NCBI GenBank assembly: GCA_903857865.1
Contig: CAIOGO010000022.1
Location: 59,176 to 123,175 of the forward strand
DNA: 64,000 bases
Direction of reading: 5' to 3'
Origin: an uncultured bacterium
Lineage (GTDB): Bacteria > Bipolaricaulota > Bipolaricaulia > UBA7950 > UBA9294
Shown: piece by piece, positions 3,389 to 41,660 of the stretch
How the letters are laid out: each line of letters begins with the position of its first letter
How positions within the stretch are numbered: position 1 is the stretch's first letter
Notes under the pieces: generated by a model
The model's input: only the letters and a program-made list of their open reading frames with translations
What the model was told of the DNA's origin: nothing
Database searches by the model: none
Program-made: the position numbers and the translations under genes

Positions 3389-3541
3389 GCTAGGGAGAAC
3401 GGCGGCTCTGGCGGAGCCGCTAGGGAGAACAGGTCTTCAGACCTGTTCTCCTTCCCGTTGCCCGTTCTTCTGGGGGGGGCGTGCGACAGCGGCCGCCGCT
3501 CGCGCGGCGGCTTGGGAGAAGGGGCTACAAGCCCCTTCTCC
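3389..3541. repeat. cluster of three GGGAGAA(N)…TTCTCC hairpin repeats (gctagggagaac x2; gggagaacaggtc-ttca-gacctgttctcc; gggagaaggggct-acaa-gccccttctcc)
   Basis: Read directly in the intergenic sequence between 3294 and 3567; related copies at 30863-30945. Confidence 0.6.
3514..3541 (-). terminator. terminator-like GC-rich hairpin 26 nt downstream of the 3567 stop (no U-tract)
   Basis: Perfect 11-bp stem gggagaaggggct/agccccttctcc with a 4-nt loop. Confidence 0.3.
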
Positions 3542-3566
3542 TTGGATATTCTCGATGGATGGCCCG

Positions 3567-6500
3567 CTATCGGCGGATGAACAGCGTGCCCTTCCCGGAG
3601 AAGCGGCTCGTCCCCGCCGAGGCCGAGATGACATAGATGTAGGCCCCATTGGCGACAAGATCGCCGCGCTCCGATCGGCCGTCCCAGATGGCGGAGAGCG
3701 CATCCACAGCTTCACCCGACCACACGAGGTGACCCTGCAGGTCGTACACGGCCACCGTGAGGAGGTCCGCCAGACCTTGCCCAGCGAAGGCAAAGGCGAT
3801 GTCGCCCTCGGACGGGTTCGGGGTGGCGTAGAACCGATCTACGCGCAACTCGCCGGCGACCACCTTGATGCTCGCCGAACTCGCGTCGGTCGGGTCGGTC
3901 GGATCGACGTAGGACGCGGTGATGGTCTCGCCGGGCGCAGCCTGAAGGTCGAGTCCTACGGTGATGAACGATCCGGGAGCTGCTCCGGCCAGAGGAGCGA
4001 GGTCGTAAGCGACACCGTTGATGGTTACGGCGTCGTTGATCGTCCCCGCGCCGGCGAGCGTCAGGTCGTCGACGCGAACGTAGACGAACTCGCCCTCGAC
4101 GTACGCGGCGACGGGATTCCCGGTCGCGTCGACGAACGTCGTGGTCGACCGCCCGACGGGCTCGGCCCCACCGATGGAGACCTTGATCGAGATCCACGCG
4201 ACGTCCGAGTGGTTCGTCGGATCCTGGTAGGCGGCGAGGATCGTGTCGCCCGGCAGGACACCGAGAGACGGAGCGCACGGGTACTGGCTCACGAGGTCAA
4301 TGCAGGTCACGCTCACAAACTCGCCCGTGTCCGTCCCCGTTTCGAACAGGTCGAACGGCGCCCATCGTCCGTTCCGCGGGTTGAGCACGTAGAGCTTCGC
4401 CCACGTTCCGTTCCCGACGATGTTTGTGTCGCCCAACAGGTCGTTCACCAGGTGGGCGTCAACGTCGAGGTAGCCGCAATCGGGAGCGTGGTTCGCCGCC
4501 AGGTCCATCGGCCCCATCGGGATGTTCTGATGCCCGTCCCAGAATCCGGCCACACGCTCGCGGCGCTGTTGGTCCTCGTTCTGGTCGGGATCGATCACCT
4601 GCACGAACACGCAGTCGCTGTTGACGTACCCCGAGGCGGGGTTTCCTGAGCGGTCGAGGAACCGCATGTTGATCTCGTCCCCGTCGTAGACCTGCGTGTC
4701 GGCGACTTCGAATACGGCAAACGAGACGTCGTTGGCGACGCGCGCCGACGCGATGGCCGGCGGGAACGACGTCGCGGTGTCCTGATCGCCCAGTCCGGCC
4801 AGCGCCTCTTCAGCGTAGACCACGTCGTTGTACCGCGCGTAGATCGAATCCTCGTTGAACGCTTCGAGGTCCCAGTTGTCGAGTTGCAGGGAGTAGCCGC
4901 CATCCTGTCCCGGATCGCCGATTCCGAGCGCGTCCCACACGGGCGAGAGCGACAGTCCGGAGTTGGAGAAGAAGACGGGCGAGTTGCTCGACAGCTCGTC
5001 GAGGATGAGCCACTCGGTGTCGTCGATCTCGTGCGGGTCGCAGACTTGAGCGACAACCTGTTCCGGGCAGCACGCCTCGACGTTGGCGTTCGCGTCCACG
5101 ACCTCGACGTACACCGGGTCGCGGCCGATCCAGAAGACGTCTTGGCTATTGCGCGCGTAGTCCGTGAAGTGAAGGGTGCTGTGGTTTCGCTCCCCGATGT
5201 AGGCCGTCGCGAGCTTGAAGTCGTCTTGATCGTTCGGGTCGATGTAGTAGGCGACAAGCACGTCGCGCACGTTGAGTTCCGTGAATCCCAGATCGTGGAG
5301 AATGCTGTTGATTCGGAACTCGAAGACGCCGGTGTTCGCCCCCGTCTCGGTGGCGTAGAACATGATGCGGGTCACGCCGCCCGTCGTCGCCGTGGCGAAC
5401 GACACCGGCATCTTGTCGGCTTCCGTCGGATAGTGGACGTAGTACGTCCCATCGGCGTTTGGCTGACGGCTTCCGTCATTGCGGAGGTTGACGTCGGCCG
5501 TGGTGAGGCCGCTGTCGTAGATGTTGCACCACAAGAGGGCCTGATCGGCCGGCGTCCCGATCAGGTCGACGACACCCCCCCAGCGGTTGATGGCCCAGAA
5601 GTCACTGGCGCTGGTCGGCTTGGCAGGGGAGATCACTGACCCAGCGGCCCAATTCCACGATCCTGGGTTCACGAGGATGAACACGGGCACCATCTCGGCT
5701 TTGCCCGGATGAAGATTCTCATCCGGGTCGGTGATCGTCACCGTCGCCGCCTCGTTTCCATCGGGATACACCTCGCGTGACCAGGCGATCTCCGCTTCCG
5801 TGTCGAAGATCTTGGCGCGCGCCAGAGCCACGTCGCCAGGGTCGTTCTGATCGACGTAGAGTCCGACGAGCGTGTCCATGTTCTCGAATCGCCCGAGCAT
5901 GTAGTCCTTCAAGCGTGCCAGGGAGCTGCCGTTCGGCAGGTACGCGTCGCCTCCAGGGATGAACGAGGCGCGCGCATCCACGAATTGGAGCACCGCGTTG
6001 TCGAGTTGCAGGGAAACCGTCTGCGTGGGGATCGTCAGCGCGCTCACCCAGACACGGTCATCGCCTTCGTCGCCCGGGTCCACGGCGGTGTCGGCATAGA
6101 GGTAGCCGCCCCACTGGAAGTCGGTCGGCTCGACGGAGCCGGGTCCGCGGCCGTCGACCGGCCCGACGATGTGAGCGTAGTCGCGCCCATCGTGGGAGTA
6201 GTCCACGCGCGTTCCGATCTGGAACGGCCGCGCGCTCACGAAGAGGCCCGTCGATCGATTGGTCTCCTCGAGGTAGTCGGCTCCAAGCCACCCTGCCGAC
6301 GCACCGGGCCAGTGGCCCTTGTGCGGCGAGTAGTCCACATCGCCGAATTCCGCTTCGCCCACGCCGTCTTCATCGATGTCCGCGCCGGACCGGTCGATGT
6401 AGCTCTTCCACACGATGTGCGCACCCGTCTTGGCGTCGATCACCTTGATGTCCGTCCACACCTTGTCGCGCACGTCGCAGTCGATGTCCTCATCCGGATC

Positions 6501-6668
6501 GCGGACGACAATCCAGATGTGCTCTCCCTCCTGAATCCTCGACACCCGGGTCTCCCCGTTTTTGTCGGCGGAGAAGTAGAGCTCCGCTTCCGTTCCTGCG
6601 GCAGTGGCCGCCCAAAGGGACGCGAGGAGAAGCGCGGCCACGGGAATGGCGCATCTTGTTCGTTTCAT
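3567..6668 (-). CDS. large secreted cell-surface protein (~1033 aa) with signal peptide and C-terminal T9SS-type/FlgD-Ig-like sorting domain
   Basis: Start MKRTRCAIPVAALLLASLWAATAAG (signal peptide) at 6668, in frame with track ORF 3567..6989; C-terminus …FYATPNPSEGDIAFAF…VAVYDLQGHLVWSGEAVD…WDGRSERGDLVANGAYIYVISASAGTSRFSGKGTLFIRR matches the Por/T9SS C-terminal domain pattern; ATGA overlap with upstream gene. Confidence 0.7.
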   Translation of the reverse strand: MKRTRCAIPVAALLLASLWAATAAGTEAELYFSADKNGETRVSRIQEGEHIWIVVRDPDEDIDCDVRDKVWTDIKVIDAKTGAHIVWKSYIDRSGADIDEDGVGEAEFGDVDYSPHKGHWPGASAGWLGADYLEETNRSTGLFVSARPFQIGTRVDYSHDGRDYAHIVGPVDGRGPGSVEPTDFQWGGYLYADTAVDPGDEGDDRVWVSALTIPTQTVSLQLDNAVLQFVDARASFIPGGDAYLPNGSSLARLKDYMLGRFENMDTLVGLYVDQNDPGDVALARAKIFDTEAEIAWSREVYPDGNEAATVTITDPDENLHPGKAEMVPVFILVNPGSWNWAAGSVISPAKPTSASDFWAINRWGGVVDLIGTPADQALLWCNIYDSGLTTADVNLRNDGSRQPNADGTYYVHYPTEADKMPVSFATATTGGVTRIMFYATETGANTGVFEFRINSILHDLGFTELNVRDVLVAYYIDPNDQDDFKLATAYIGERNHSTLHFTDYARNSQDVFWIGRDPVYVEVVDANANVEACCPEQVVAQVCDPHEIDDTEWLILDELSSNSPVFFSNSGLSLSPVWDALGIGDPGQDGGYSLQLDNWDLEAFNEDSIYARYNDVVYAEEALAGLGDQDTATSFPPAIASARVANDVSFAVFEVADTQVYDGDEINMRFLDRSGNPASGYVNSDCVFVQVIDPDQNEDQQRRERVAGFWDGHQNIPMGPMDLAANHAPDCGYLDVDAHLVNDLLGDTNIVGNGTWAKLYVLNPRNGRWAPFDLFETGTDTGEFVSVTCIDLVSQYPCAPSLGVLPGDTILAAYQDPTNHSDVAWISIKVSIGGAEPVGRSTTTFVDATGNPVAAYVEGEFVYVRVDDLTLAGAGTINDAVTINGVAYDLAPLAGAAPGSFITVGLDLQAAPGETITASYVDPTDPTDASSASIKVVAGELRVDRFYATPNPSEGDIAFAFAGQGLADLLTVAVYDLQGHLVWSGEAVDALSAIWDGRSERGDLVANGAYIYVISASAGTSRFSGKGTLFIRR

Positions 6669-7294
6669 TCGGTCCTTCCTTCCCTGGGTGTCCAAGCGAT
6701 GGCTCCCTCGGTCCCTGCGGCTCGCTGGGGCCGCAGGACGTTGCCTGGCGCGGAGGCCTGGAGTGCCGCGAACGCGCGTCTCCATGCCCCGATCGTGAAG
6801 GCCAGCCAGATGACGATGGGCGACGCCTCCCACAGCAGGCGAACCGCCAGTTGGGCGATCTCCCGCGTGCCTCCCGCGGTGAGTCCGGCGGCGCTGTACG
6901 ACAGCTCGACGGAGACGACCACGTAGAGGACGTGGAGGGCGAACAGCGCGGCGACACCGCCCGCCGCCAACGCCACGCGGCGCCCCCATCGGAGGTTGGG
7001 CGTCGCGAGGAACAGGGCGAGGAGCGGAACCACAGCGAAAAACGCGTATCGATCAAAGAACATGAACGGCGCGACGCGATCCTGACCGACGCGGCGGTAG
7101 GCCCAGACCGTGTCGCCCTGCGGGCTCACGACCGTCACATCGTCGCGCTCGACCCACCGGAATGCGGGCTGAGCGACGGCCGAGACCGCCGTGCCGTAAC
7201 GAGGGGCGACGAACGTCCAGACGGCGACAAGGACGGCGAGGGCGACGACGAAGACGAGCGCGAAGCGCCCCACGAGTCGGAGGGAAGCTCTCAT
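6665..7294 (-). CDS. small polytopic membrane protein (1 TM + ~55-aa loop + 3 TM), exosortase-associated
   Basis: Start MRASLRLVGRFALVFVVALAV at 7294 with AAGGAGG RBS; 4-bp ATGA overlaps at both ends (7291-7294 and 6665-6668). Confidence 0.55.
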   Translation of the reverse strand: MRASLRLVGRFALVFVVALAVLVAVWTFVAPRYGTAVSAVAQPAFRWVERDDVTVVSPQGDTVWAYRRVGQDRVAPFMFFDRYAFFAVVPLLALFLATPNLRWGRRVALAAGGVAALFALHVLYVVVSVELSYSAAGLTAGGTREIAQLAVRLLWEASPIVIWLAFTIGAWRRAFAALQASAPGNVLRPQRAAGTEGAIAWTPREGRTE

Positions 7295-7809
7295 GTGGCC
7301 CTCCTTGTCTGGGATCCTGCGCGTCCCGCCCACAGGAGCCACAACGAGACGGCGATCGCGATCACGAGCGATTGCCACACCAACTGGTGCACAAGCTCGA
7401 GCGCCGTTCGCCAGTACCTGCCGACGTAGTACAGCGAGGCGAGACGTACGACGTTGACAAGGAACAAGCCGACGAGGCCGACGCCGGTGCCAACGAGGCG
7501 CGCCCGCCACGATGTCGGGAACGCGACCACGGCGGCGAGGAAGAGGCCGGTGACGAAGAGCCCCGTGCACGCCGTGACAACCGAGATTCCGAACTCGTGT
7601 GACAGGATGTCCGTGCCCTGCGCAACGGTGTGGTTTCCGAGGACGTTGAGCACGGCGCTCGTCACGACCGCAAACGCGCGGCGAACAACGGCGGTCGCTG
7701 CGTCGTTCGACAAGACGAGAACGAGCGCTCCGAGCACGGCGCCGGCGCCGAGCGCCGAGGCGGCGGCGCGACGCCATGCGGGAACGTGTCGGTCCTCGCG
7801 CCGGCTCAC
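7291..7809 (-). CDS. minimal exosortase/archaeosortase-family protein (~172 aa), candidate IPTL-CTERM (XrtH-like) sorting enzyme
   Basis: Five TM helices; LGNHTVAQGTDILSHEFGISVVTACTGLFVTGLFLAAVVAF resembles the exosortase catalytic-Cys block (…V.eaCSG.rs…); downstream WRAR…LFLVNVVRLASLYYVG resembles the conserved Arg and N-x-x-R blocks; GTG start at 7809 gives a GTGA overlap with the upstream stop (the track ORF extends further, to 7971). Confidence 0.6.
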   Translation of the reverse strand: MSRREDRHVPAWRRAAASALGAGAVLGALVLVLSNDAATAVVRRAFAVVTSAVLNVLGNHTVAQGTDILSHEFGISVVTACTGLFVTGLFLAAVVAFPTSWRARLVGTGVGLVGLFLVNVVRLASLYYVGRYWRTALELVHQLVWQSLVIAIAVSLWLLWAGRAGSQTRRAT

Positions 7810-8879
7810 GCTCGGCCCCTCACAGCGTGCGCCCTTCGGCCCTGGAGGCGCCACGCGAACGCGATGACGAACGCAACGGAGAGCCCGATCATTCCCCACT
7901 CGGTCAGGCTTGGCGCGTCGATCGTGCCCGTGAGGGGAATCGGAAGCTCCGACTCCTGCACCGTGACGCACGTCGGGTCATCGTCCTCCGCTGTCGCCGG
8001 GTCGTCGGTGGGCTCGCTCGCGTCGACGGTTCCGTCGCGGTTGGAGTCCCAGCGGACGAAGCCCTGGTTGCAGAGCGCCGTTCCCGCTTCGACATCGTTC
8101 CCGATGCGCGCCTTGAACGTCAGCCGGACCGTGCCGCCGGCCGGGATCGAGCCGTCCCAGACGATCGAGTCGCCGGTTACGGCCGCAGTGCCGCGGTCCG
8201 CCTGGATGAAGCCCGTCGCCGACAGGCCGACGGGCAGCGTGTCGGTGAACTCGTGCTCCGGCCCGTCGGTCAGGTTGGCGCAGCCCTCGTTCACGATGAC
8301 GACCTCATAGCGAATGGTGTCGCCCGGGTTGGGGGTGCCGCCGTCCACGTCGACGGCCGTCTTGGTTGCCTCGACGTAGGGTGCGTTGGGGCGGACGAGG
8401 ACCTCGAACTCCTCTAGGTTGTTGTCCTCGTTCAGTTCCGCGACGGTCCCCCCGGAGTCGGCCCGTACGATGATGCGATGAGTTCCGGGAGGGACTCCGT
8501 CGGTGTCCCATGTGAACGTCAGTCTCACGAACTCGCAGCCGAGGAGCTTGTCGACGTGCCGCGTGGCAATCGGATGCGACGGATCGTCCCAGTAGACCGC
8601 GACATCGAACGGGCCTGCGTCGCCACAGCTCAGGTTGTCGATCGTTACGGTGATCGTCACTTTTCCGCCCTCGCAGACGTCGCCCGACGTCTCCTGGACG
8701 GAAGTTGCACCGCCGGAGAGGACTACGCCGGGGGCGGGGAACCAGAGGTCGGGGGACTTCACGCACGGCTCCTCAGCCGACGCACTGCCTGCCGCGAAGA
8801 GCAGGACGGAGAGCGCAAGCAGCGAACCCACCCCAGACATCCTTCCCCAACGTTCGATTCGCTTGTTCAATTGCACCAC
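7806..8879 (-). CDS. secreted repeat-domain (CARDB/DUF11-like) surface protein with IPTL-CTERM-type (IPTLxxWG) C-terminal sorting signal
   Basis: N-terminal signal peptide (SLLALSVLLFAAGSASA); C-terminus …IDAPSLTEWGMIGLSVAFVIAFAWRLQGRRAHAVRGRA = motif + TM helix + basic cluster. Confidence 0.7.
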   Translation of the reverse strand: MVQLNKRIERWGRMSGVGSLLALSVLLFAAGSASAEEPCVKSPDLWFPAPGVVLSGGATSVQETSGDVCEGGKVTITVTIDNLSCGDAGPFDVAVYWDDPSHPIATRHVDKLLGCEFVRLTFTWDTDGVPPGTHRIIVRADSGGTVAELNEDNNLEEFEVLVRPNAPYVEATKTAVDVDGGTPNPGDTIRYEVVIVNEGCANLTDGPEHEFTDTLPVGLSATGFIQADRGTAAVTGDSIVWDGSIPAGGTVRLTFKARIGNDVEAGTALCNQGFVRWDSNRDGTVDASEPTDDPATAEDDDPTCVTVQESELPIPLTGTIDAPSLTEWGMIGLSVAFVIAFAWRLQGRRAHAVRGRA

Positions 8880-13587: not shown

Positions 13588-14877
13588 CTACGCTCCAGCG
13601 CCGCAGGGTTTCGCCATGCGGGCCTCGAACTCCTCGCGGAACGAGTCCACGGCCGTCTGAATGGGAAGAATCGGCGACTGGCCGAGCGGGCAGAGAGATG
13701 TCGCTTGCATCGTCCTCGCCACCTCAACGAGTCGCTCGAGATCGTCGGCGGTTGCCGCGCCGCTCCGGATCCGCTCCGACAGAGTGACCAGAACCGAGGC
13801 ACCCACTCGACAGGGAACGCACTGCCCGCACGACTCATGGCGGAAGAATCGCAGAATTCCGTGCAGGAGCTCGACGACGGATGCATCCTCGTCGAGCACA
13901 AGGATGGCTCCGGATCCAAGCACCCCGCCGCGCTCTTTGGCACCGTCGAAGTCCATCGGCATCTCGAGGGCGCCGGGTCCAACGATCGCTCCGGCCGCGC
14001 CTCCGAGCAGAGCAGCCTTGAACCGCTTCCCAGCACGGATCCCGCCTCCGAATGCCTCAATGAGCGTGCGGAGAGGGGTCCCCATCTCCACTTCCACTGC
14101 CTTCGGAGTCTCAACGTCTCCCAGGATCTGGAACACCTTGGTCCCGGGGCTCGAGGCCGTCCCGAAGCCGCGGAACCAGTCCGCGCCACGCGCGATGATG
14201 GCGGGCACGTTGGCCAGGGTCTCGACGTTGTTCACCACGGTCGGCTTCTTCCACAGGCCGACCGAGCCCGGATACGGCGGCTTGAGGCGCGGATAGCCGC
14301 GCTTGCCCTCGATGGATTCGATGAGCGACGTTTCTTCGCCGCAGACGTAGGCGCCGGCGCCCTTCTTGACTTCGATGTCAAACGCGAAGCTGGAGCCGAG
14401 AACGGCGTCCCCAAGATACCCGCCAGCGCGGGCATCGTCGATCGCCTTCTGGATCCGGCGGATGGAGAGGCTGTACTCGCCGCGGATGTACACGTAGCCC
14501 TTGGAGGCTCCGACGGCGTACCCGGCCAGCATCATGCCCTCTAGGAGCTTGTGCGGATCCCCTTCGAGGATAAGTCGATCCTTGAAGGTTCCCGGCTCGC
14601 CCTCGTCTGCGTTGCAGACGATGTACTTGACATCGCCCGGCGCGGTGAACGACCACTTCACGCCGGTCGGAAAGCCGGCGCCGCCGCGCCCGCGCAGTCC
14701 CGAGCGTTTGATCTCGGCGGTGATCTCGGCGGACGGCCGCTTCTCGCGGACAACCTGGGTGACGGCCTTGTACGCGCCGGCCTTCACGGCCTCGCTCAGG
14801 CTTTCCGGATCGATCCGGCCGCAGTTCTCAAGCACGATCCGCGTCTCTTTCGCGGGGGCGCGGCTACCTGGTTGCAT
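13588..14877 (-). CDS. hoxF: NAD(P)H-binding flavoprotein subunit of the bidirectional hydrogenase diaphorase (NuoF-like)
   Basis: RGRGGAGFPTG FMN/NAD motif; C-terminal 4Fe-4S Cys cluster ESCGQCVPCR. Confidence 0.8.
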   Translation of the reverse strand: MQPGSRAPAKETRIVLENCGRIDPESLSEAVKAGAYKAVTQVVREKRPSAEITAEIKRSGLRGRGGAGFPTGVKWSFTAPGDVKYIVCNADEGEPGTFKDRLILEGDPHKLLEGMMLAGYAVGASKGYVYIRGEYSLSIRRIQKAIDDARAGGYLGDAVLGSSFAFDIEVKKGAGAYVCGEETSLIESIEGKRGYPRLKPPYPGSVGLWKKPTVVNNVETLANVPAIIARGADWFRGFGTASSPGTKVFQILGDVETPKAVEVEMGTPLRTLIEAFGGGIRAGKRFKAALLGGAAGAIVGPGALEMPMDFDGAKERGGVLGSGAILVLDEDASVVELLHGILRFFRHESCGQCVPCRVGASVLVTLSERIRSGAATADDLERLVEVARTMQATSLCPLGQSPILPIQTAVDSFREEFEARMAKPCGAGA

Positions 14878-15325
14878 CGCTCCTCCTCACCTCGGCGATC
14901 ACGCTCAGCACCTTCTCCTTCGTCAGGGCTCCATAGATCCTGTCGTCCACCATCATCGCCGGTCCCTCCGCGCAGGCGCCGAGGCAGCTCGTGGTCTCCA
15001 GCGTGAACGCGCCGTCGGGCGCCGTCTCGCCGACCGCGACGCCGAGATCCTCAGCGAGGATGTCGAGAAGAGTCTCGCCTCCCAAGAGTTGGCATGGCGG
15101 AGACTCGCACAGGCGGATGATGTGCCGGCCGCGCGGCATTCGGCTGTACATCGTGTAGAACGTCGCCGTGCTCACGACCTCCGACAGCGGAGCGCCAAGG
15201 TACTCGGCCGCCGCCTGCAGCGCCTCGTCCGACAGGTGGTGCTGCGGATCCGCGTCTTGGATCGCGTGCAGGATGTCCAAGAGGGACTCCATCGACCGGG
15301 GAAACTTCCGCAAGAGCTCGTTCAC
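14864..15325 (-). CDS. hoxE: NuoE-like 2Fe-2S thioredoxin-fold subunit of the diaphorase
   Basis: CESPPC…C.GAC 2Fe-2S pattern; sits between the hydrogenase protease gene and hoxF. Confidence 0.7.
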   Translation of the reverse strand: MNELLRKFPRSMESLLDILHAIQDADPQHHLSDEALQAAAEYLGAPLSEVVSTATFYTMYSRMPRGRHIIRLCESPPCQLLGGETLLDILAEDLGVAVGETAPDGAFTLETTSCLGACAEGPAMMVDDRIYGALTKEKVLSVIAEVRRSDATR

Positions 15326-15777
15326 GCATCCTCCTCAAGCACACCACCATGCGGTGCTGAACAGCCGAGCCAGCGGAGCGCCATCCGGCGCGCCTCGGGT
15401 ACCGCGCACTCGGCCTCCGGGCTGAGAGATTCGCCGAACGGAAACGCTCGTGCCGGCACCGTGAGCAGCCACCCCTCGGGCGCCCGGCCGTGGACCAGCC
15501 TCGTCCATTGCAGGAGCGCCTCGGGCGACAGCGCGTGCCCAAGAAGCGCGGCCTCCGCCGCGGGCTCAAGCGGGGACAACCGGACCGTGTCGTCCGTGGC
15601 GTGCGCGTCGATGAAGAGCACGCGTTCAGCGTCGCGCAATCGATCCGCAAGCTCCGGGGTCAATTGATGGACCGCGATGGTCTCCGCGTCCGGCCGCGGC
15701 GGAAGAGCCCCGACGACGCGGATTCCTACGCCGTCGTCGCCTCGCAACTCGTTTCCGATGCCCACGATGAGGTCCAT
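15322..15777 (-). CDS. hoxW: hydrogenase maturation (C-terminal processing) protease
   Basis: N-terminal GIGNELRGDDGVG motif typical of HycI/HoxW proteases. Confidence 0.75.
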   Translation of the reverse strand: MDLIVGIGNELRGDDGVGIRVVGALPPRPDAETIAVHQLTPELADRLRDAERVLFIDAHATDDTVRLSPLEPAAEAALLGHALSPEALLQWTRLVHGRAPEGWLLTVPARAFPFGESLSPEAECAVPEARRMALRWLGCSAPHGGVLEEDA

Positions 15778-15781
15778 GTCT

Positions 15782-17200
15782 CTAGTCCCGCGAGAGCGTC
15801 GCCTCCACTTCGCCCTGCGCGTTCACGATCTCGACGCGCAGCGGCATCCGCCCCACCGCGTGGACCGAGCAGGACAGGCAGGGGTCGTAGGCGCGGATCC
15901 CGCCCTCGATGCGGTTGAGGATTCCCTCGCTTACCTTCCCCTTCTTGATGTAGATCTTGGCGATCTCCCGGATCGCGCGGTTCATCGCCAGATTGTTGTG
16001 ACCGGTCGACACGATGAGGTTCAGCTTCTCGATGATGCCGTTCTGGTCGACCCAGTAGTGGTGAATGAGGGTCCCACGCGGCGCCTCATGGACTCCGACG
16101 CCCTCGCGAGCGTTCACGCCCGCCTCGGCGCGGATCGCCGGGGAGGTGATACGGTCGTCTGCCAGGAGTTCGGCCATCTCCTCGATCGCGGCGAGGATCT
16201 CGATCAGGCGCGCGTAGTGGTAGTCGAACACGCGCCCCGACCGGCCGCCCGATTGCGCGCGGAACTCCTCGAGCTCGGCCTGGGCGAGAGGTGTATCGAA
16301 TCGGTCGCAGGCGTTGATGCGCCCGAGAGGTCCGACGCGGTACATGCCTTCCGGGTACCCCATCGGTTGGTAGTAGGGGAACTTGAGGTAGGTCCAGGGC
16401 TCCGACGCTTCCTGGATAATCTCCGCGTACTGAGCCGGGTTGTGCTCGCGAACGACCCGCCCCTTGGCGTCGACGATGCGCAACACGCCCTCGTAGTGCT
16501 CCCAGGCGCCATCCTGACGCACGAGTCCCATGTAGAGGCTCGGGTAGTCGCCGAGCACGTCGCGTTCCTTCGTATCTCCGAATGCGGACTTGAACAGGGC
16601 CAGCGTCTCCTGGATCGTGGTCCGGGCCTCGGGCAGCCTTTCGGTCATCCAGGCGCGGTCTTCCTGCGACAGCGCTTGGTTTACGCCGCCCGGCACGGCC
16701 CACGCGGGATGGATGCGCTTCCCGCCAAGGCGGTCGATGGCCTCTTGGCCGAACGCGCGCAGGCGGATTCCCTTCCGCGCGAGGTCCGGGCGCGCGGCGA
16801 TGAGCCCGACGACGTTGCGCGTTGCCGGATCGCAGTCCCACCCGAGGAGGAAGTCCGGCGCCGAGAGGTAGAAGAAGCTGAGGGCGTGGGACTGTACGAG
16901 CTGAGCGAGGTTCATCAGGCGTCGTAGGAGTTGGGCCGTCTCCGGAATCCTGACCGCCAGAATCGCGTCGCAGGCCTTCGCCGATGCCAGGATGTGGCTG
17001 ACTGGGCAAATGCCGCAGATCCTCGCGGTGAGGCCAGGCATCTCCCACATCGTGCGGCCAACGCAGAACTGCTCGAACCCGCGGAGCTCCGTGACGTGGA
17101 ACTGCGCGTCGCGGACATCGCCCGCCGAATCCAGGAACACGGTGATCTTGCCGTGACCCTCGATGCGCGTCACCGGTTCAATGTGAATCTGCCTTTCCAT
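15782..17200 (-). CDS. hoxH: [NiFe] hydrogenase large subunit (group 3, bidirectional type)
   Basis: N-terminal [10 protein letters not shown] and C-terminal DPCLSCSVH Ni-Fe-binding motifs followed by a ~25-aa tail cleaved by the protease; ATG at 17200. Confidence 0.85.
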
Positions 17201-17217
17201 CGTTCCTGTCCTTCTGG

Positions 17218-17754
17218 CTATCCGAACTTGAGGTCGGAGCCGACGAGCTCCGGGGTTTCTCCGTCGAGCAGCGCGAGAATCACCTTGGCGATCAGCCCGG
17301 CTGGCGGCGGACACCCATGCACGAAGAAGTCCACGGGAATCACCTCAGCGAGCGGCGAAACGCGCCCGAGCAGCCGCGGAACCACGTCGAACGGCAGGGC
17401 GCCGTTGGACGTTGCCGGCGAGCCATAGATCGCTTGGATCATCTGGTTGGAGTCGAAGCCGTTGCGCAGCGCCGGCACGTTGCCCGTGACCGCGCAGTCC
17501 CCCAACGCTACGATGATCTTCGACTTCTCGCGCGCCGTGCGCACGAGGTGCAGGTGCTCCTCGTTTGCGACGGCGCCCTCGATCAACGTCACGTCGACAC
17601 CATCCTCGGGAAACGCTTTGAGATCCGTCAACGGGCTGTTGCGGAGGTCGATGCGCGCCGCGAGGTCGATCAGCGTCTCGTCGATATCAAGGAGCGACAT
17701 GTGACAGCCGGCGCACCCGCTGAACCACATCGTCGCGACTCGAACCTTAGCCAT
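17218..17754 (-). CDS. hoxY: [NiFe] hydrogenase small subunit (NuoB-like)
   Basis: [10 protein letters not shown]…GDCA…HGCPP Cys pattern of HoxY/20-kDa subunit family. Confidence 0.8.
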
Positions 17755-18445
17755 GGGACCTCCTCTCGGCGAGGTGGGCGACGACGTCCGGCTTCTTCCT
17801 CATCTCCGCGTTGCTCGCTCCCTTGAGGACGAGGGCTCCTGTCGGGCACACGTCCACGCACTTCCCGCATCCCGTGCATGTCTCCGCCTGTCCCCAGTCG
17901 ACATCGAGGTCGGTGATCACGCGTACCGCGCTCCCGCGCTCCGCGAAGTCCCACGTGCGTGCGCCTTCGATCTCGCCGCACGCGCGCACGCATCGGCCGC
18001 AGACGACGCAACGATCGCGGTCGATGAGGAATCGAGGATGACTTGCGTCAACCCGATTCCGCGGAAACGCGTAGGGAATCCGCACGGATTGCATGCCGAC
18101 CTCACACGCCAGGTCTTGGAGTTCACATCCCCCGCTTGACACGCAGAACGAGCAGACGTGATTCCCCTCGGCGAACAGCAACTCAACGATCATGCGCCGA
18201 TGCGCTCGGACCGCCTCGGTGTCCGTCAGGATTTCCATCCCCTCCGCGACGTTCGTTGTGCACGCCGTCACGAACTGGCCCCGCACGTCGACGATGCACA
18301 CGCGGCACGCGCCGACGTCCGTCAGTCCCTTCAGATGGCACAGCGTCGGGATTCGAATCCCGTTTTCTTCGGCGGCGTCGAGGATCGTCCTTCCGGGGCT
18401 CGTCGCGATGCCCCGACCGTCGATCTTTATCGTGACACGTTCCAC
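17747..18445 (-). CDS. hoxU: hydrogenase diaphorase Fe-S subunit (2Fe-2S + 4Fe-4S, NuoG-N-like)
   Basis: C.VC… 2Fe-2S motif plus CVVCGRCVRAC and CTGCGKCVDVCP ferredoxin motifs. Confidence 0.75.
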   Translation of the reverse strand: MERVTIKIDGRGIATSPGRTILDAAEENGIRIPTLCHLKGLTDVGACRVCIVDVRGQFVTACTTNVAEGMEILTDTEAVRAHRRMIVELLFAEGNHVCSFCVSSGGCELQDLACEVGMQSVRIPYAFPRNRVDASHPRFLIDRDRCVVCGRCVRACGEIEGARTWDFAERGSAVRVITDLDVDWGQAETCTGCGKCVDVCPTGALVLKGASNAEMRKKPDVVAHLAERRSHG

Positions 18446-36443: not shown

Positions 36444-37517
36444 ATGGACATGAAATCGGAGTTGTACGAGCTGTGCCAGCGCGTGCCAGACCTGGCCGCG
36501 AAGGTCCGCACCGAGGAGGCTACGAAGCATGGTCTGGTCCTCCCGTTCATCAAAGCCCTCGGCTACAACGTCTTCGATCCCGCCGAGGTGGTCCCTGAGT
36601 TCATAGCCGACATCGGAGAGAAGAAGGGCGAGAAGGTGGATTACGCCATTCTTATGGATGGGAAGCCTATTCTTCTCTTCGAGTGCAAGACCTGCGGCGA
36701 GCAGCTTGAGCCTCAGCGAGCCATACAGCTTCAGCGCTACTTCCAAGGCGTAGCGAGCGTCAGGTTCGGAATTCTCACGGACGGGCTCGTTTATCGATTC
36801 TACTCCGACCTAGAACGCCCAAACGTCATGGACGCGAAACCGTTCCTTGAGATCAATCTCCAGAGCCTTACGGACGATGACGTTGAGCAACTCCGGAGAT
36901 TCTCGAAGCAGTCGTTCAACGTAGCTGACATCCTCGGAACCGCTGGTGCCCTCAAGTACACGCGCGAGATTCGGCAGCTACTGGAGACCGAGTTCGACAC
37001 GCCAAGTGACGACTTTCTCGAGTTCCTGACGCGGCGCGTCTATGGTGGGAACTTCACTAAGGCGGCTCTCGCGCGCTTCGTCCCCATCGTACAGAAGGCA
37101 CTTCGGGAGTTCGTGAACGGCCGAATCACACGCACCCTGGAAGCAGCTAGGGATCTTCAGGCGAGCGGACGCGCCGCGGAAGAGGCTGAGAGTGCGGGTA
37201 CAGGTGAGGAGTTGGTGACGACAAGCCACGAGTTGCAGGGCTACTACATTGTCAAAGCCATCCTGAGTCCCCACGTTGACCTCGGCCGGGTTGCGATCCG
37301 AGATGTCCAGAGCTACTGCGGTATCCTTCTTGACGACAGCAACCGCAAGCCTATCTGCCGACTGCACTCTAACGACCAGAACAAACTCCGGCTAGGCCTT
37401 TTCGATGCTGCGAAGCAGGAGGAACGTGTGCCGCTCCAACGCGTTGACGACATCTACAAGTACGCTGACCGCATTCGAGAGGTCGTGCGGAGCTACGATT
37501 CGCAGGAGAAGGTGTGA
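36444..37517 (+). CDS. HsdR-N / PD-(D/E)xK nuclease-fold domain protein (orphan)
   Basis: KVDYAILMDGKPILLFECK = D…ExK core as in the type I restriction R-subunit N-terminal domain; lower local GC. Confidence 0.5.
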   Translation: MDMKSELYELCQRVPDLAAKVRTEEATKHGLVLPFIKALGYNVFDPAEVVPEFIADIGEKKGEKVDYAILMDGKPILLFECKTCGEQLEPQRAIQLQRYFQGVASVRFGILTDGLVYRFYSDLERPNVMDAKPFLEINLQSLTDDDVEQLRRFSKQSFNVADILGTAGALKYTREIRQLLETEFDTPSDDFLEFLTRRVYGGNFTKAALARFVPIVQKALREFVNGRITRTLEAARDLQASGRAAEEAESAGTGEELVTTSHELQGYYIVKAILSPHVDLGRVAIRDVQSYCGILLDDSNRKPICRLHSNDQNKLRLGLFDAAKQEERVPLQRVDDIYKYADRIREVVRSYDSQEKV

Positions 37518-38749: not shown

Positions 38750-38923
38750 GCTCAGCGGGAGTCGAGGTGATGCACATCACAGTCGCGGACAGATCTCCAG
38801 GACGTGACGTGCATCACGTCCGCGCCGCTTCTGCTCAGCGTGATGCGCATCACGCAATGGATGTCGCCACGGTGGGGGGCAGATGCTGTATCGGATGCCA
38901 AGAGTAAAGATTTGACCCCGGCG
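38718..38923. repeat. copy A of a ~180-bp direct repeat (REP-like hairpin + GATGCRCATCAC palindromic motifs + conserved 3' block ggatgccaagagtaaagatYtgaccccggcg)
   Basis: Conserved blocks align with 42288-42449. Confidence 0.55.
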
Positions 38924-38962
38924 CCCTTTGCGGAGAGGAGGGGAACAAGATATCCTTCAGGT

Positions 38963-40570
38963 ATGCCTGATGGCGAGAATGGTGATCTGTCTCGTGTAAC
39001 TCGGGTGTCCCTTCGCAACAAGCATAGCGCACCGAGTGAGAGAGAGGCCTCGGCGCGGAGGAAGTTCTACGTGCCGTCAAGGTACAACCACTTTCTCCGT
39101 GACGGGGACCGCTGGCTCGGTGCCAACCTGCTGTCCGGGGCTGTGATGAACCTGCGGGACGATGACTGCGCGCTCGTTCATCGCCTCTTGGCAATGAAGG
39201 TCAGACCACGCCAGCTCCCTGAGCGGGTGCTCTATGACATGCTCGTCAAGTCTCGTTTTCTCGTTCCGGCGGACTCTGATGAGACTGCGTACTTGAAACA
39301 GCTGTTTGCGGTTGGAAAGCAGTGCCGGGTAGGGTTCTCGCTGGGTCTTGTCGTCACGTTGGCGTGCAACTTCAGGTGCGTCTACTGCTATCAGGACCAT
39401 CGTCGCGCGATCATGGGTACCGACGTGCAGGACGCTGTCATGGCTCTGCTCAGGAAAGCGCTGCCGGGGAAGGAACACTTCACGGCATCGTGGTTCGGCG
39501 GTGAGCCACTGTTGAAGCCCAGGGTGATCACCGACCTCGGGCGACGGATGATTCAGTTGTGTGACTCTCTGGGTGTGAACTACGACTGCGTGTTAACGAC
39601 AAACGGCTATTTGCTCACACGAGCCAACATCGCGATGCTGGCAGCCGGCCGAGTCAGCCACATTCAGATCACCTTGGACGGACCGCGCGAGTTGCACGAC
39701 GTCACTCGACATCTCCAGGACGGGTCGGGCACCTATGAGGTCATCATGGCGAACCTCGGGAATCTGGTGAGGACTCTGCCTGAGGTGCCGATAACCATTC
39801 GCTGTAACATAACTGCCAGCTCCATGGCCGCCGGCGAGCACGCATGGAGCAGGCTTCTGTCGGACTTGGAGCCGTACAGGCGGTCGGTCTCGCTCACCAT
39901 TTGCCCGGCAATTCCGAGCAGGACGTCAAACGCGCACTGCATATCGAAGAGCCAGTTCGGGGATTTCTATGGCCACGTATCGACGATGATGGAGGAGAGA
40001 GGCTTCAGAGTAGCTTCGGATGGGCCCTCCCCAGGCGCCGTCTCCTGCGGCGCCATCCCGAGGCTGAACTGGCTCATAGGCCCTACCGGGCATGTCTCCA
40101 AGTGCACGGTGGGAGCGGACGAAACGGACGGCTATCTCGGGCGACTTGGGCCGGACGGCACGATCGACCTCTCAGCCGAGGCAGCGAGATGGCTGAATTT
40201 CTCACCGTTTCGTCTCAAGAAGTGTCGTGAATGCAGTGTTCTTCCCCTCTGCATGGGAGGCTGTGTGATTGTTCCATTTGACGATCCGCACGTAGACAGA
40301 TGTGACATCAAGACTAACGTGCTGATGTATGTGAAGAGCAACCTACCCAGAAAGGAGGTGATTGATATGACCGTACCGCAGTTCAACCTTGAGCGCGTGG
40401 AGAAAGCTCTCGAACAAAGCGCGACGGAGTACTACACGAGCCTGTTTGTTCAAGCGGGCATCCCTAAGGATGTTGCCTCGAAGGCAGCAATGGTGTGCGC
40501 CACTAACAAGTGCAAGGGGCCTGGCTTCCAGCCTGGTGGCCAGGCTCTACAGGCGCTCGTAACGACCTGA
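38963..40570 (+). CDS. radical SAM / SPASM-domain protein (anSME-like peptide-modifying maturase)
   Basis: CNFRCVYCYQ (CX3CX2C) and C-terminal SPASM cysteines (CRECSVLPLCMGGC); start uncertain (ATG 38963; the track ORF from 38804 runs through the repeat). Confidence 0.65.
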   Translation: MPDGENGDLSRVTRVSLRNKHSAPSEREASARRKFYVPSRYNHFLRDGDRWLGANLLSGAVMNLRDDDCALVHRLLAMKVRPRQLPERVLYDMLVKSRFLVPADSDETAYLKQLFAVGKQCRVGFSLGLVVTLACNFRCVYCYQDHRRAIMGTDVQDAVMALLRKALPGKEHFTASWFGGEPLLKPRVITDLGRRMIQLCDSLGVNYDCVLTTNGYLLTRANIAMLAAGRVSHIQITLDGPRELHDVTRHLQDGSGTYEVIMANLGNLVRTLPEVPITIRCNITASSMAAGEHAWSRLLSDLEPYRRSVSLTICPAIPSRTSNAHCISKSQFGDFYGHVSTMMEERGFRVASDGPSPGAVSCGAIPRLNWLIGPTGHVSKCTVGADETDGYLGRLGPDGTIDLSAEAARWLNFSPFRLKKCRECSVLPLCMGGCVIVPFDDPHVDRCDIKTNVLMYVKSNLPRKEVIDMTVPQFNLERVEKALEQSATEYYTSLFVQAGIPKDVASKAAMVCATNKCKGPGFQPGGQALQALVTT

Positions 40571-40799: not shown

Positions 40800-41660
40800 A
40801 TGGCTCGCCCCCTCCGGATTGAGTACCCCGGCGCTGTCTACCATGTGACCTGTCGCGGCAACGCACGGGAGAAGGTCTTCCTTGTCGATCCCGATCGAGA
40901 GCTCTTCCTTGAAGTGTTCGCGGAAGTTGTAGAGCGCTTTAGCTGGCGCTGCCATGCGTACTGTCAGATGACGAACCACTACCACCTGCTGATCGAGACG
41001 ATTGAGCCCACCCTGTCGCATGGCATGCGACAACTGAACGGTGTCTACACCCAGGAGTTCAACCGCCGGCATCGTCGCACGGGACATGTCTTCCAGGGAC
41101 GTTTCAAAGCCATTCTCGTCGAGCGCGACGCCTATCTCCTCGAGCTTGGACGCTATGTTGTCCTGAATCCCGTTCGCGCCAAGATGGTGCGGAGGGCGCA
41201 AGACTGGCCGTGGTCAAGCTTCCGTGCGACGGCCGGCCTTGAGGACGTGCCCTTCTTCCTCGCCACAGACTGGATTCTCGAGCAGTTCGCGACATCGAAG
41301 GCGAAAGCGCAGAAGGCATACCGCAAGTTCGTCTCGGAAGGCCGTGGCGTCCCGGTGTGGGAGCACCTCCGCGGGCAGATCTACCTCGGCAGCGACACGT
41401 TCATCGAGGAACACGCGCCGGAACTGCCTCCAGTTCGCGAGATTCCGAAGACCCAGGTCCAGGTCCGTCGGCCGCCGCTCTCGGCCATTGTTGCCGACCC
41501 GAAAGACGCCGCGAGCATTGCACGCGCATACATCGAGCACCACTACGCCCAGCACGAGATCGCCAGCCACCTCGGCGTTCACTACTCGACGATCAGTCGA
41601 CGACTCCGAGCCTCCTGCGTGCCGCGGACTCGCAACATGGTACGCGATTACAAGACCTGA
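40800..41660 (+). CDS. REP-associated tyrosine transposase (RAYT) / IS200-like Y1 transposase with C-terminal HTH
   Basis: YHVTCRGN…HAYCQMTNHYHLLIE HuH motif and catalytic Tyr region; C-terminal HTH (…HLGVHYSTISRRL). Confidence 0.75.
   Translation: MARPLRIEYPGAVYHVTCRGNAREKVFLVDPDRELFLEVFAEVVERFSWRCHAYCQMTNHYHLLIETIEPTLSHGMRQLNGVYTQEFNRRHRRTGHVFQGRFKAILVERDAYLLELGRYVVLNPVRAKMVRRAQDWPWSSFRATAGLEDVPFFLATDWILEQFATSKAKAQKAYRKFVSEGRGVPVWEHLRGQIYLGSDTFIEEHAPELPPVREIPKTQVQVRRPPLSAIVADPKDAASIARAYIEHHYAQHEIASHLGVHYSTISRRLRASCVPRTRNMVRDYKT

Follow-up and report, generated by a model that had tools for sequence, protein, structure and literature searches.

A type IX secretion-type C-terminal domain encoded in an XrtH-like exosortase operon of Candidatus Bipolaricaulota

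C-terminal domains (CTDs) of the kind found on type IX secretion system (T9SS) cargo are usually held to be a hallmark of the Bacteroidota, or of the Fibrobacteres-Chlorobi-Bacteroidetes (FCB) superphylum, and of type IX secretion. What defines the substrates of exosortases and archaeosortases is a short motif together with a transmembrane helix and a cluster of basic residues. In the CTD group, PorU and PorZ keep their CTDs, which bind PorV and PorQ; it has been proposed that cognate PorV-like barrels shield CTDs from cleavage, and the placement of their genes beside those of CTD proteins is a known pattern (PMC10202324). The surface-layer (S-layer) proteins TfsA and TfsB of Tannerella forsythia are CTD cargo (PMC8869499). 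On the exosortase side, mela_00855, an experimentally identified S-layer protein of the diderm Methylomirabilis lanthanidiphila, is a secreted protein of approximately 316 amino acids (aa) with an IPTL-CTERM tail, forming a hexagonal layer (PMC8671808). Here we describe a 64,000-nucleotide (nt) stretch of DNA from an uncultured bacterium of the phylum Bipolaricaulota (GenBank assembly GCA_903857865.1, contig CAIOGO010000022.1, positions 59,176 to 123,175 of the forward strand), which will be referred to as the window. It encodes a secreted 1033-aa protein, the target of this study, which carries a T9SS-type CTD in a distant, deep-branching phylum and is the last product of a four-gene exosortase cassette.

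The first cultured member of this phylum, strain J31, possesses a toga-like outer membrane with a hexagonal S-layer, the protein of which was not identified; this layer sits on the outer membrane and shows a p6 lattice with a 6.25-nm repeat (bioRxiv 10.1101/2025.11.21.689855). A closed Acetothermia genome lacks lipopolysaccharide (LPS) genes, contains outer-membrane markers, and its published model includes only Sec for export (PMC6092417).

To classify the C-terminus of the target, profile hidden Markov models (HMMs) were applied with their curated cut-offs of 23 bits for TIGR04183 and 27 bits each for CHU_C, FlgD_ig and PF18962. Scored within the whole protein, the domain stayed just below the first three of these cut-offs (TIGR04183 17.4, CHU_C 26.6, FlgD_ig 18 bits); as an isolated 95-aa domain it reached 30.1 bits with CHU_C and 23.1 bits with TIGR04183, PF18962 remaining below its cut-off at 16.6 bits. 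Among 31 diverse members of the family, FlgD_ig, CHU_C and the C-terminal region of the PorU model each matched all 31, TIGR04183 matched 25, the C-terminal region of PorZ 24, PF18962 13 (CHU_C, TIGR04183 and PF18962 at E<0.01) and TIGR04131 a single one. A search of the PDB with the whole-family profile returned PorZ, FlgD and PorU only, in every case via the CTD. Such family-wide matches, together with the result of the profile search, therefore argue that the pattern in the tail reflects real homology and not chance.

The predicted fold was consistent with these scores. An AlphaFold2 (AF2) model of the domain reached a mean predicted local distance difference test (pLDDT) value of 97 and formed a seven-strand sandwich, which superposed on solved CTDs of T9SS cargo with a root-mean-square deviation (rmsd) of approximately 2 Å. 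The best matches, both by sequence and with Foldseek, were the CTDs of PorU and PorZ. The domain occupies the extreme C-terminus in all relatives, including proteins of 1.2-2.9 kaa with other architectures, and the target combines the seven-strand C-terminal sandwich with an N-terminal Sec signal recognised by inspection. Neither an exosortase signature motif, a membrane helix or a basic tail nor a match to IPTL_CTERM was found at its C-terminus. Judged by sequence and predicted fold, the tail is a genuine T9SS-type/FlgD-Ig CTD. An earlier note, made from the letters alone, had read the gene as encoding a secreted protein of about 1033 aa with a T9SS-type CTD, a reading that the HMM matches, the fold and the superposition bear out; a lack of scores against the T9SS-CTD or FlgD-Ig models, which that note had named as grounds for refutation, was not observed, as the domain scores against both.

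A second type of CTD was observed on other large Bipolaricaulota proteins with beta-helix or CLIPPER bodies. It follows the pattern N[YIV]PNP..DVHTTTF ... LANGVYLY ... KLAILR up to the stop codon and was found in the genes L039:14276-17701, L043:5317-9489, L037:816-6011, L067:1-3129 and L006:3941-5524 (locus handle and position). One protein of this type exceeded the TIGR04183 cut-off with 25.7 bits.

The full-length homologues of the target, with identities of 52-100%, are named Candidatus Bipolaricaulota (= Acetothermia, OP1). Scanning GTDB genomes, one for each species, yielded 117 relatives, for which 80 loci were kept; going by submitter labels, most of these are Bipolaricaulota or Bipolaricaulia, the others being third-party annotation (TPA) entries of an 'uncultured Thermotogae bacterium' and a few odd labels. 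Homologue names and GTDB species genome labels thus place the host outside the Bacteroidota and the FCB superphylum. The content of guanine plus cytosine (GC) in the window is approximately 65%, in agreement with the earlier note, which had spoken of a high-GC genome unlike that of the Bacteroidetes. The family defined by the body of the protein is narrow, with 185 representatives among 1.84 billion proteins.

Distant relatives labelled Thermofilaceae and Thaumarchaeota/Terraquivivens had pointed to a CTD present in Archaea and hence not related to the T9SS, an idea that was dropped. The contig of the 'Thermofilaceae archaeon' (L006; GCA_038887975.1, JAWAJK010000030.1) carries a PorV/PorQ-like barrel, CTD proteins and a GGDEF gene; because of the barrel and the GGDEF gene it very likely comes from a bacterium and was binned wrongly. 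At the second locus (L005, P0137 cluster, 'Candidatus Terraquivivens') a beta-helix is fused to the region corresponding to residues 255-936 and the CTD; this contig was not placed.

The gene of the target lies within an open reading frame (ORF) spanning 3567..6989 on the minus strand, and its start was assigned to the ATG at 6668-6666. The same start was called on an identical metagenome contig of the Joint Genome Institute (JGI), the resulting N-terminus agrees with those of 68 aligned homologues, and a ribosome-binding site (GGAAGGA) is located 6-7 nt 5′ of the ATG. Residues 1-25, MKRTRCAIPVAALLLASLWAATAAG, followed by TEAE, show by inspection the n/h/c layout typical of a Sec signal peptide, with the signal peptidase I site likely between AAG and TEAE. 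Apart from this segment, a hydrophobicity scan detected one weak hydrophobic stretch, inside the CTD, and no other. The mature protein is acidic (109 kDa, isoelectric point approximately 4.1), with 10.4% Asp and few Lys residues.

Modelled as a whole by AF2 (pLDDT 84.5, predicted template modelling score 0.73), the protein is nearly all beta-strand and would consist of roughly nine immunoglobulin (Ig)-like sandwiches plus the CTD, with no flexible linker ahead of the latter. Acidic motifs of the general form DP-D/N-x-D/N recur at strand ends of the body (DPDEDID, DPDENLH, DPNDQDD, DANANVE and DPDQNED, after which come the aligned DPTNHSD and DPTDPTD), and the N-terminal approximately 250 residues are very highly conserved. 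Outside the CTD, the body gave no Pfam, NCBIfam or PDB sequence match. The top fold matches of the whole protein were archaeal Ig-domain S-layer proteins, at a TM-score of 0.15 and 10-15% identity. Four giant proteins of 3.4-3.7 kaa (P0169, P0170, P0182, P0189) contain 15-19 tandem copies of the domain at target residues ~415-575, an Ig-like module that, on sequence evidence, serves as a repeat unit elsewhere too.

The cassette comprises, in this order, the genes for an IPTL-CTERM protein, an XrtH-like exosortase, a membrane protein and the target (Table 1). According to the gene calls all three junctions are 4-nt overlaps, the ATG of the target overlapping the TGA stop codon of the 209-aa gene as ATGA. 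Two perfect hairpins follow the stop codon of the target; they are terminator-like but lack a T-run, and a consensus scan that requires a T-run did not list them. From the overlaps together with the hairpins it follows that the target gene closes an operon of tight coupling, as the earlier note had proposed from the ATGA overlap. The 12-mer GTTCTCCCTAGC occurs twice, approximately 30 nt apart, in the same region as the hairpins (3390-3545, minus strand), which by its sequence could be a T-less terminator or an element resembling repetitive extragenic palindromes. An Rfam scan of the window gave no match.

The arrangement is strongly conserved. In other genomes the four cassette genes were contiguous for 34 out of 34 genes of the cassette-linked clade, and the cassette is kept even at orthologues of 50-52% identity with different flanking genes. 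One cassette locus (L040) lies at 768-791 kb of the complete Bipolaricaulota chromosome CP070725.1. The 209-aa gene holds the same position in all cassette loci, and an ATGA or GTGA overlap of 4 nt joins the third and fourth genes in 22 of approximately 40 loci. No fewer than 95% of 39 exosortase orthologues retain C80, R121 and H140, and the tail of the 341-aa protein (GTIDAP[ST]L[ST]EWG, a transmembrane helix and RRRR) is kept in 36 loci. Since the catalytic Cys/Arg/His residues, the IPTL-type tail and the cassette order are all conserved, the exosortase part is, as far as sequence can tell, intact and dedicated, with the 341-aa protein as its presumed sole dedicated substrate. Thus, one operon carries two kinds of C-terminal signal, the IPTL-CTERM tail on its first gene product and the CTD on its last, which the earlier note had recognised correctly. 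The 341-aa protein also gave a weak match to the 'midcut-by-XrtH' model (16.5 bits), and its CLIPPER/DUF11 domain type was linked to intramolecular isopeptide bonds in a 2025 survey (PMC12617251).

Table 1. Features of the exosortase cassette and of the target gene; positions are those of the window.
Feature	Position	Strand	Description and basis
Target gene, 1033 aa	3567..6668	minus	ORF, translation and homologue N-termini; last of the four-gene cassette
Signal peptide, residues 1-25	6594..6668	minus	Sequence inspection and hydrophobicity scan; homologue N-termini also hydrophobic
Body, predicted chain of Ig-like beta-sandwiches	3849..6593	minus	AF2 model
C-terminal domain, residues 941-1033, ending ...KGTLFIRR before the stop	3570..3848	minus	HMM scans and AF2 fold; seven-strand T9SS-type/FlgD-Ig sandwich
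209-aa polytopic membrane protein	6665..7294	minus	NF041730 17.1 bits (cut-off 35); weakly like exosortase H-associated protein
172-aa small exosortase, XrtH-like	7291..7809	minus	TIGR04177 78.9 bits (cut-off 86), TIGR04178, a generic exosortase/archaeosortase signature, 46.5 (23), PF09721 27.2 (25.7)
341-aa secreted CARDB + CLIPPER (DUF11, isopeptide-type) protein	7806..8831	minus	CARDB 46.2, DUF11 32.9, IPTL_CTERM 17.5 bits (cut-off 20.5)
IPTL-CTERM signal of the 341-aa protein: TGTIDAPSLTEWG, hydrophobic helix, RLQGRRAHAVRGRA	7809..7931	minus	Conserved tail
Two perfect hairpins 3′ of the target stop: 3515-3541 (11 bp, loop TTGTA) and 3424-3451 (12 bp, loop TGAA)	3424..3541	minus	Read from the sequence

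Besides the cassette-linked gene, many genomes contain one to three extra copies of the approximately 1030-aa protein, which share 45-52% identity, the same architecture and the CTD but are found without the cassette. The family was sorted by identity clustering, and the ORFs flanking these paralogues were clustered as well. At 13 loci a gene for a protein of approximately 315 aa with a signal peptide follows the paralogue at a distance of 4-80 nt on the same strand. This protein matched the PorV/PorQ family model NF033709 over positions 10-325 of 326 with 82.2 bits (E 4.8e-23), just below the cut-off of 90; it also matched PorV2 (54 bits), PorQ (33 bits) and PorV (32 bits), and its top PDB sequence match was Flavobacterium PorV (6h3i, E 0.015). 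Within the family-selected loci, all 17 PorV-like genes are situated directly downstream of the gene of a CTD protein on the same strand, four of them following CTD proteins from outside the family that end in ...KLAILR (L037, L043 twice, L006).

As the first loci had been selected via the CTD family, a reverse test was performed with the barrel as query, for which 80 metagenome loci were fetched. For approximately 30 out of 32 close barrel homologues with upstream sequence, the gene lying 60-100 nt ahead encodes a family protein with the CTD at its end. A CTD-ending ORF likewise precedes 17 more distant barrels, even though the HMMs used were narrow. The CTDs of PorV-linked paralogues and cassette-linked orthologues score in the same range with the CTD HMM (approximately 100-142 and 103-144 bits), and several genomes carry a cassette copy and a PorV-linked paralogue together. 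With PorV/PorQ-type barrels present in the phylum, the CTD is less isolated than the earlier note had assumed. A scan of the neighbours of the CTD/PorV loci for further T9SS parts yielded nothing but PKD proteins, a Lon-like protease, a PLD nuclease, a transposase and beta-helix CTD proteins.

The barrel itself, annotated as 'hypothetical' in databases, is very highly conserved: the best 120 database clusters, from 784 matches in all, are 84-100% identical, the upstream CTD protein diverging to 45-60%. One copy is located at L047:3028-3972 (plus strand), with homologues in L036-L039, L042-L044, L046, L051, L065, L067, L071 and L085 and in P0287-P0406. Such conservation may mark a major, strongly constrained outer-membrane protein of the toga.

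Taken together, we favour the view, with confidence and doubt about evenly balanced, that the target is an envelope or toga surface protein whose CTD docks in trans on a PorV/PorQ-type barrel and that the exosortase matures only the IPTL-CTERM neighbour. Docking is proposed because the pairing of CTD and barrel genes fits the retention model known for PorU-PorV and PorZ-PorQ. The target would be exported via Sec and fold into a chain of Ig-like domains, and its CTD would dock it on a beta-barrel of the PorV/PorQ family in the toga-like outer membrane. The exosortase would trim the IPTL-CTERM tail of the 341-aa CARDB/CLIPPER protein and would not act on the target. Translational coupling of the four genes might reflect a joint action of their products at the cell surface, possibly as an anchored small subunit together with a large Ig-like array.

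Several points weigh against this proposal. The link between CTD and barrel was shown for the phylum and not for the window's own genome. Neither in the 64-kb window nor within 10 kb of any cassette-linked orthologue was a PorV-like gene found, so the barrel would have to act in trans. A six-frame translation of the window revealed no second CTD protein and no PorV-like barrel, and none of 20 further window ORFs scanned was a T9SS or outer-membrane component. The PorV-like protein remains just under the NCBIfam cut-off (82.2 versus 90 bits), and the proposal does not explain how a folded protein of 109 kDa would pass the outer membrane if a SprA-type translocon is missing. That the target lies at the surface, keeps its CTD and touches the IPTL-CTERM protein in any way is inferred. 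Membership of the target in an S-layer finds circumstantial support in the acidic multi-Ig architecture, the phylum-wide conservation and the fold matches to archaeal S-layer proteins. According to our own volume estimate, however, a p6 lattice with a 6.25-nm repeat could hardly take six 109-kDa subunits, as a thickness of more than approximately 20 nm would be needed, and this weakens the target as the hexagonal S-layer subunit of strain J31. If the operon builds the J31 S-layer, the 341-aa protein would, by the same estimate, be the more plausible lattice subunit.

One alternative is that the terminal sandwich is an ordinary structural Ig-like domain, which would serve, for instance, in lattice or oligomer contacts like the domain of FlgD and would have no part in sorting or anchoring, the protein being an S-layer subunit or adhesin that arrives at the surface by another route. 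FlgD_ig matched the family as consistently as the T9SS models did (31 of 31), Fn3-like domains of unrelated proteins fit the fold too, the body resembles archaeal S-layer proteins in its architecture, and the model places the CTD directly after the body with no flexible linker. The CTD is nevertheless always the last domain, across differing architectures, and its genes co-occur one by one with those of PorV/PorQ-type barrels; neither would be expected of a generic Ig domain, and we regard this explanation as unlikely.

Alternatively, the two secreted cassette products might form a two-component surface layer, in which the processed IPTL-CTERM protein would be the membrane-proximal anchor or lattice and the target would bind it directly, possibly via its CTD, by analogy with SlaB/SlaA of the Sulfolobales. 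This would fit the invariant coupling of the four genes in the cassette-linked clade, which has no adjacent barrel gene, as well as the Methylomirabilis S-layer made of an IPTL-CTERM protein of similar size and the presence in the phylum of an S-layer of unidentified composition. The CTD of the target is, however, equivalent to that of the barrel-linked paralogues, and the exosortase acts at the cytoplasmic membrane whereas strain J31 bears its S-layer on the outer membrane. We consider this arrangement quite unlikely.

The target could also be conventional T9SS cargo, with a full T9SS in the genome and the CTD as an export signal that is removed by a PorU-type sortase. The CTD itself truly belongs to the T9SS-CTD superfamily, PorV/PorQ-family barrels adjoin genes of CTD proteins in the phylum, other Bipolaricaulota CTD proteins exceed the TIGR04183 cut-off, and the organism has an outer membrane. 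Reviews confine the T9SS to the Bacteroidota or the FCB superphylum, and apart from these barrels neither SprA, PorK/L/M/N and PorU nor any other T9SS component was detected in the 64-kb window or in the flanks of up to 10 kb of the relatives' CTD and PorV loci, which is not a test of whole genomes, as these were not searched. In addition, with no LPS genes in the closed Acetothermia genome, where Sec alone was modelled (PMC6092417), attachment to A-LPS would be without an acceptor. Conventional secretion by a T9SS therefore appears improbable to us.

That the exosortase module processes the T9SS-like CTD in addition to the IPTL-CTERM tail, a question raised by the earlier note, is scarcely credible and was rejected, because the target, a folded sandwich at its C-terminus, lacks the motif, transmembrane helix and basic cluster of a substrate and because paralogues with equivalent CTDs occur without the cassette, paired with PorV/PorQ-type barrels instead, even though the strictly kept linkage to the exosortase-associated membrane gene throughout the phylum, with overlapping start and stop codons, and the constant absence of an adjacent PorV-like gene from the cassette-linked clade would have suited it.

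Returning to docking of the CTD on a barrel in trans, a broader picture can be put forward only tentatively, and it is rather doubtful as a whole: an LPS-less toga phylum would use pairs of a CTD and a PorV-type barrel as a self-contained anchoring device without the translocon and motor of the T9SS, one operon would couple this device to an exosortase, and both secreted proteins would co-assemble in the toga surface layer. If this were true, docking of CTDs on barrels would predate type IX secretion itself or be spread more widely, and two supposedly unrelated sorting systems would cooperate. The findings raise the questions of what a CTD-barrel module does where the rest of the T9SS may be missing and whether docking evolved earlier than secretion. 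The invariant link to an XrtH-like exosortase cassette adds a second unexplained tie, between two pathways of surface sorting. Three candidates for S-layer and toga proteins in the first isolate emerge, the PorV-like barrel and, from the cassette, the 341-aa IPTL-CTERM protein and the 1033-aa CTD protein. The arrangement of cassette and CTD points to a mode of cell-surface construction so far undescribed beyond the known group of the CTD.

Some further observations were made in the window. Beside the cassette, at 13588-18445 on the minus strand, genes for an NAD-linked [NiFe] hydrogenase (HoxH-type large, small, 51-kDa and 2Fe-2S subunits and a maturation protease), IMPDH and adenylosuccinate lyase are encoded. 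This neighbourhood of hydrogenase and cassette (window; L001, L002) is syntenic in the relative of 69% identity (L002), not in that of 52% (L003). Between 36000 and 46000 the GC content drops to 0.60-0.62 compared to approximately 0.65, and this region contains an HSDR_N fragment (36444-37517), a radical SAM/SPASM peptide maturase (38804-40570) and an IS200-like Y1 transposase (40800-41660); it may, by these sequence features, be an acquired island with a locus for a ribosomally synthesized and post-translationally modified peptide. ARAGORN called an 89-nt tRNA-Ala(CGC) at 3642-3730 on the minus strand, within the region encoding the CTD; since Rfam gave no tRNA there at gathering score, the call is most likely a false positive.

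Compared with described systems, the target resembles proteins bearing type A CTDs of the T9SS (TIGR04183/PF18962; RgpB, Tannerella mirolase, Flavobacterium NucA, RemA and FspA). In both, a domain of approximately 75-90 aa forms the very C-terminal end of a protein exported by Sec, adopts a seven-strand 3+4 Ig-like sandwich superposing at about 2 Å rmsd, and displays the motifs PNP..., vYDl.G and aNGaYiY and a basic last strand. The target differs in its host, which lies outside the Bacteroidota and the FCB superphylum, and in scores at or just below the curated cut-offs. PorU and PorZ, the CTDs of which sit on PorV and PorQ in the P. gingivalis attachment complex, provide the best CTD matches and the type of barrel found beside the paralogues; unlike PorU, a C25-type peptidase, and PorZ, the target has an unrelated body, the barrel scores below the family cut-off, and it would serve the target in trans. 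Pairs of a type-B CTD protein and PorP/SprF, such as SprB-SprF of Flavobacterium, have the same gene order as the Bipolaricaulota paralogues, with the CTD gene followed by the barrel gene, but the CTD of the target family is type-A/FlgD-like (TIGR04131 in 1 of 31) and the barrel is PorV/PorQ-like and not PorP/SprF.

Among systems of XrtH and IPTL-CTERM (TIGR04177, TIGR04174, NF041730), the cassette shares the small exosortase with its Cys/Arg/His residues, the associated membrane protein, and the AP[ST]L[ST]EWG motif with transmembrane helix and basic tail. It differs in staying below all three cut-offs, in having a single dedicated substrate in cis and in the fourth, CTD-bearing gene of the operon, of which no description was found in the literature searched, where IPTL-CTERM hardly figures. 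By description, mela_00855 and the 341-aa protein are alike in size and signal, but no large CTD partner has been reported for the former. TfsA and TfsB are large surface-layer proteins with a T9SS CTD like the target; they are exported by the complete T9SS of a Bacteroidete, and no similarity of the target body to them was detected in the sequence searches made. Archaeal Ig-domain S-layer proteins (Nitrosopumilus maritimus 8c8m/8c8k, Haloferax csg 7ptp) likewise form chains of acidic Ig-like domains; given the low TM-score and identity mentioned above, this is no more than a likeness of domain type. Each of these kinds of element was known before; what is new is their combination, a T9SS-type CTD with PorV-like pairing and an XrtH/IPTL-CTERM system in one phylum.

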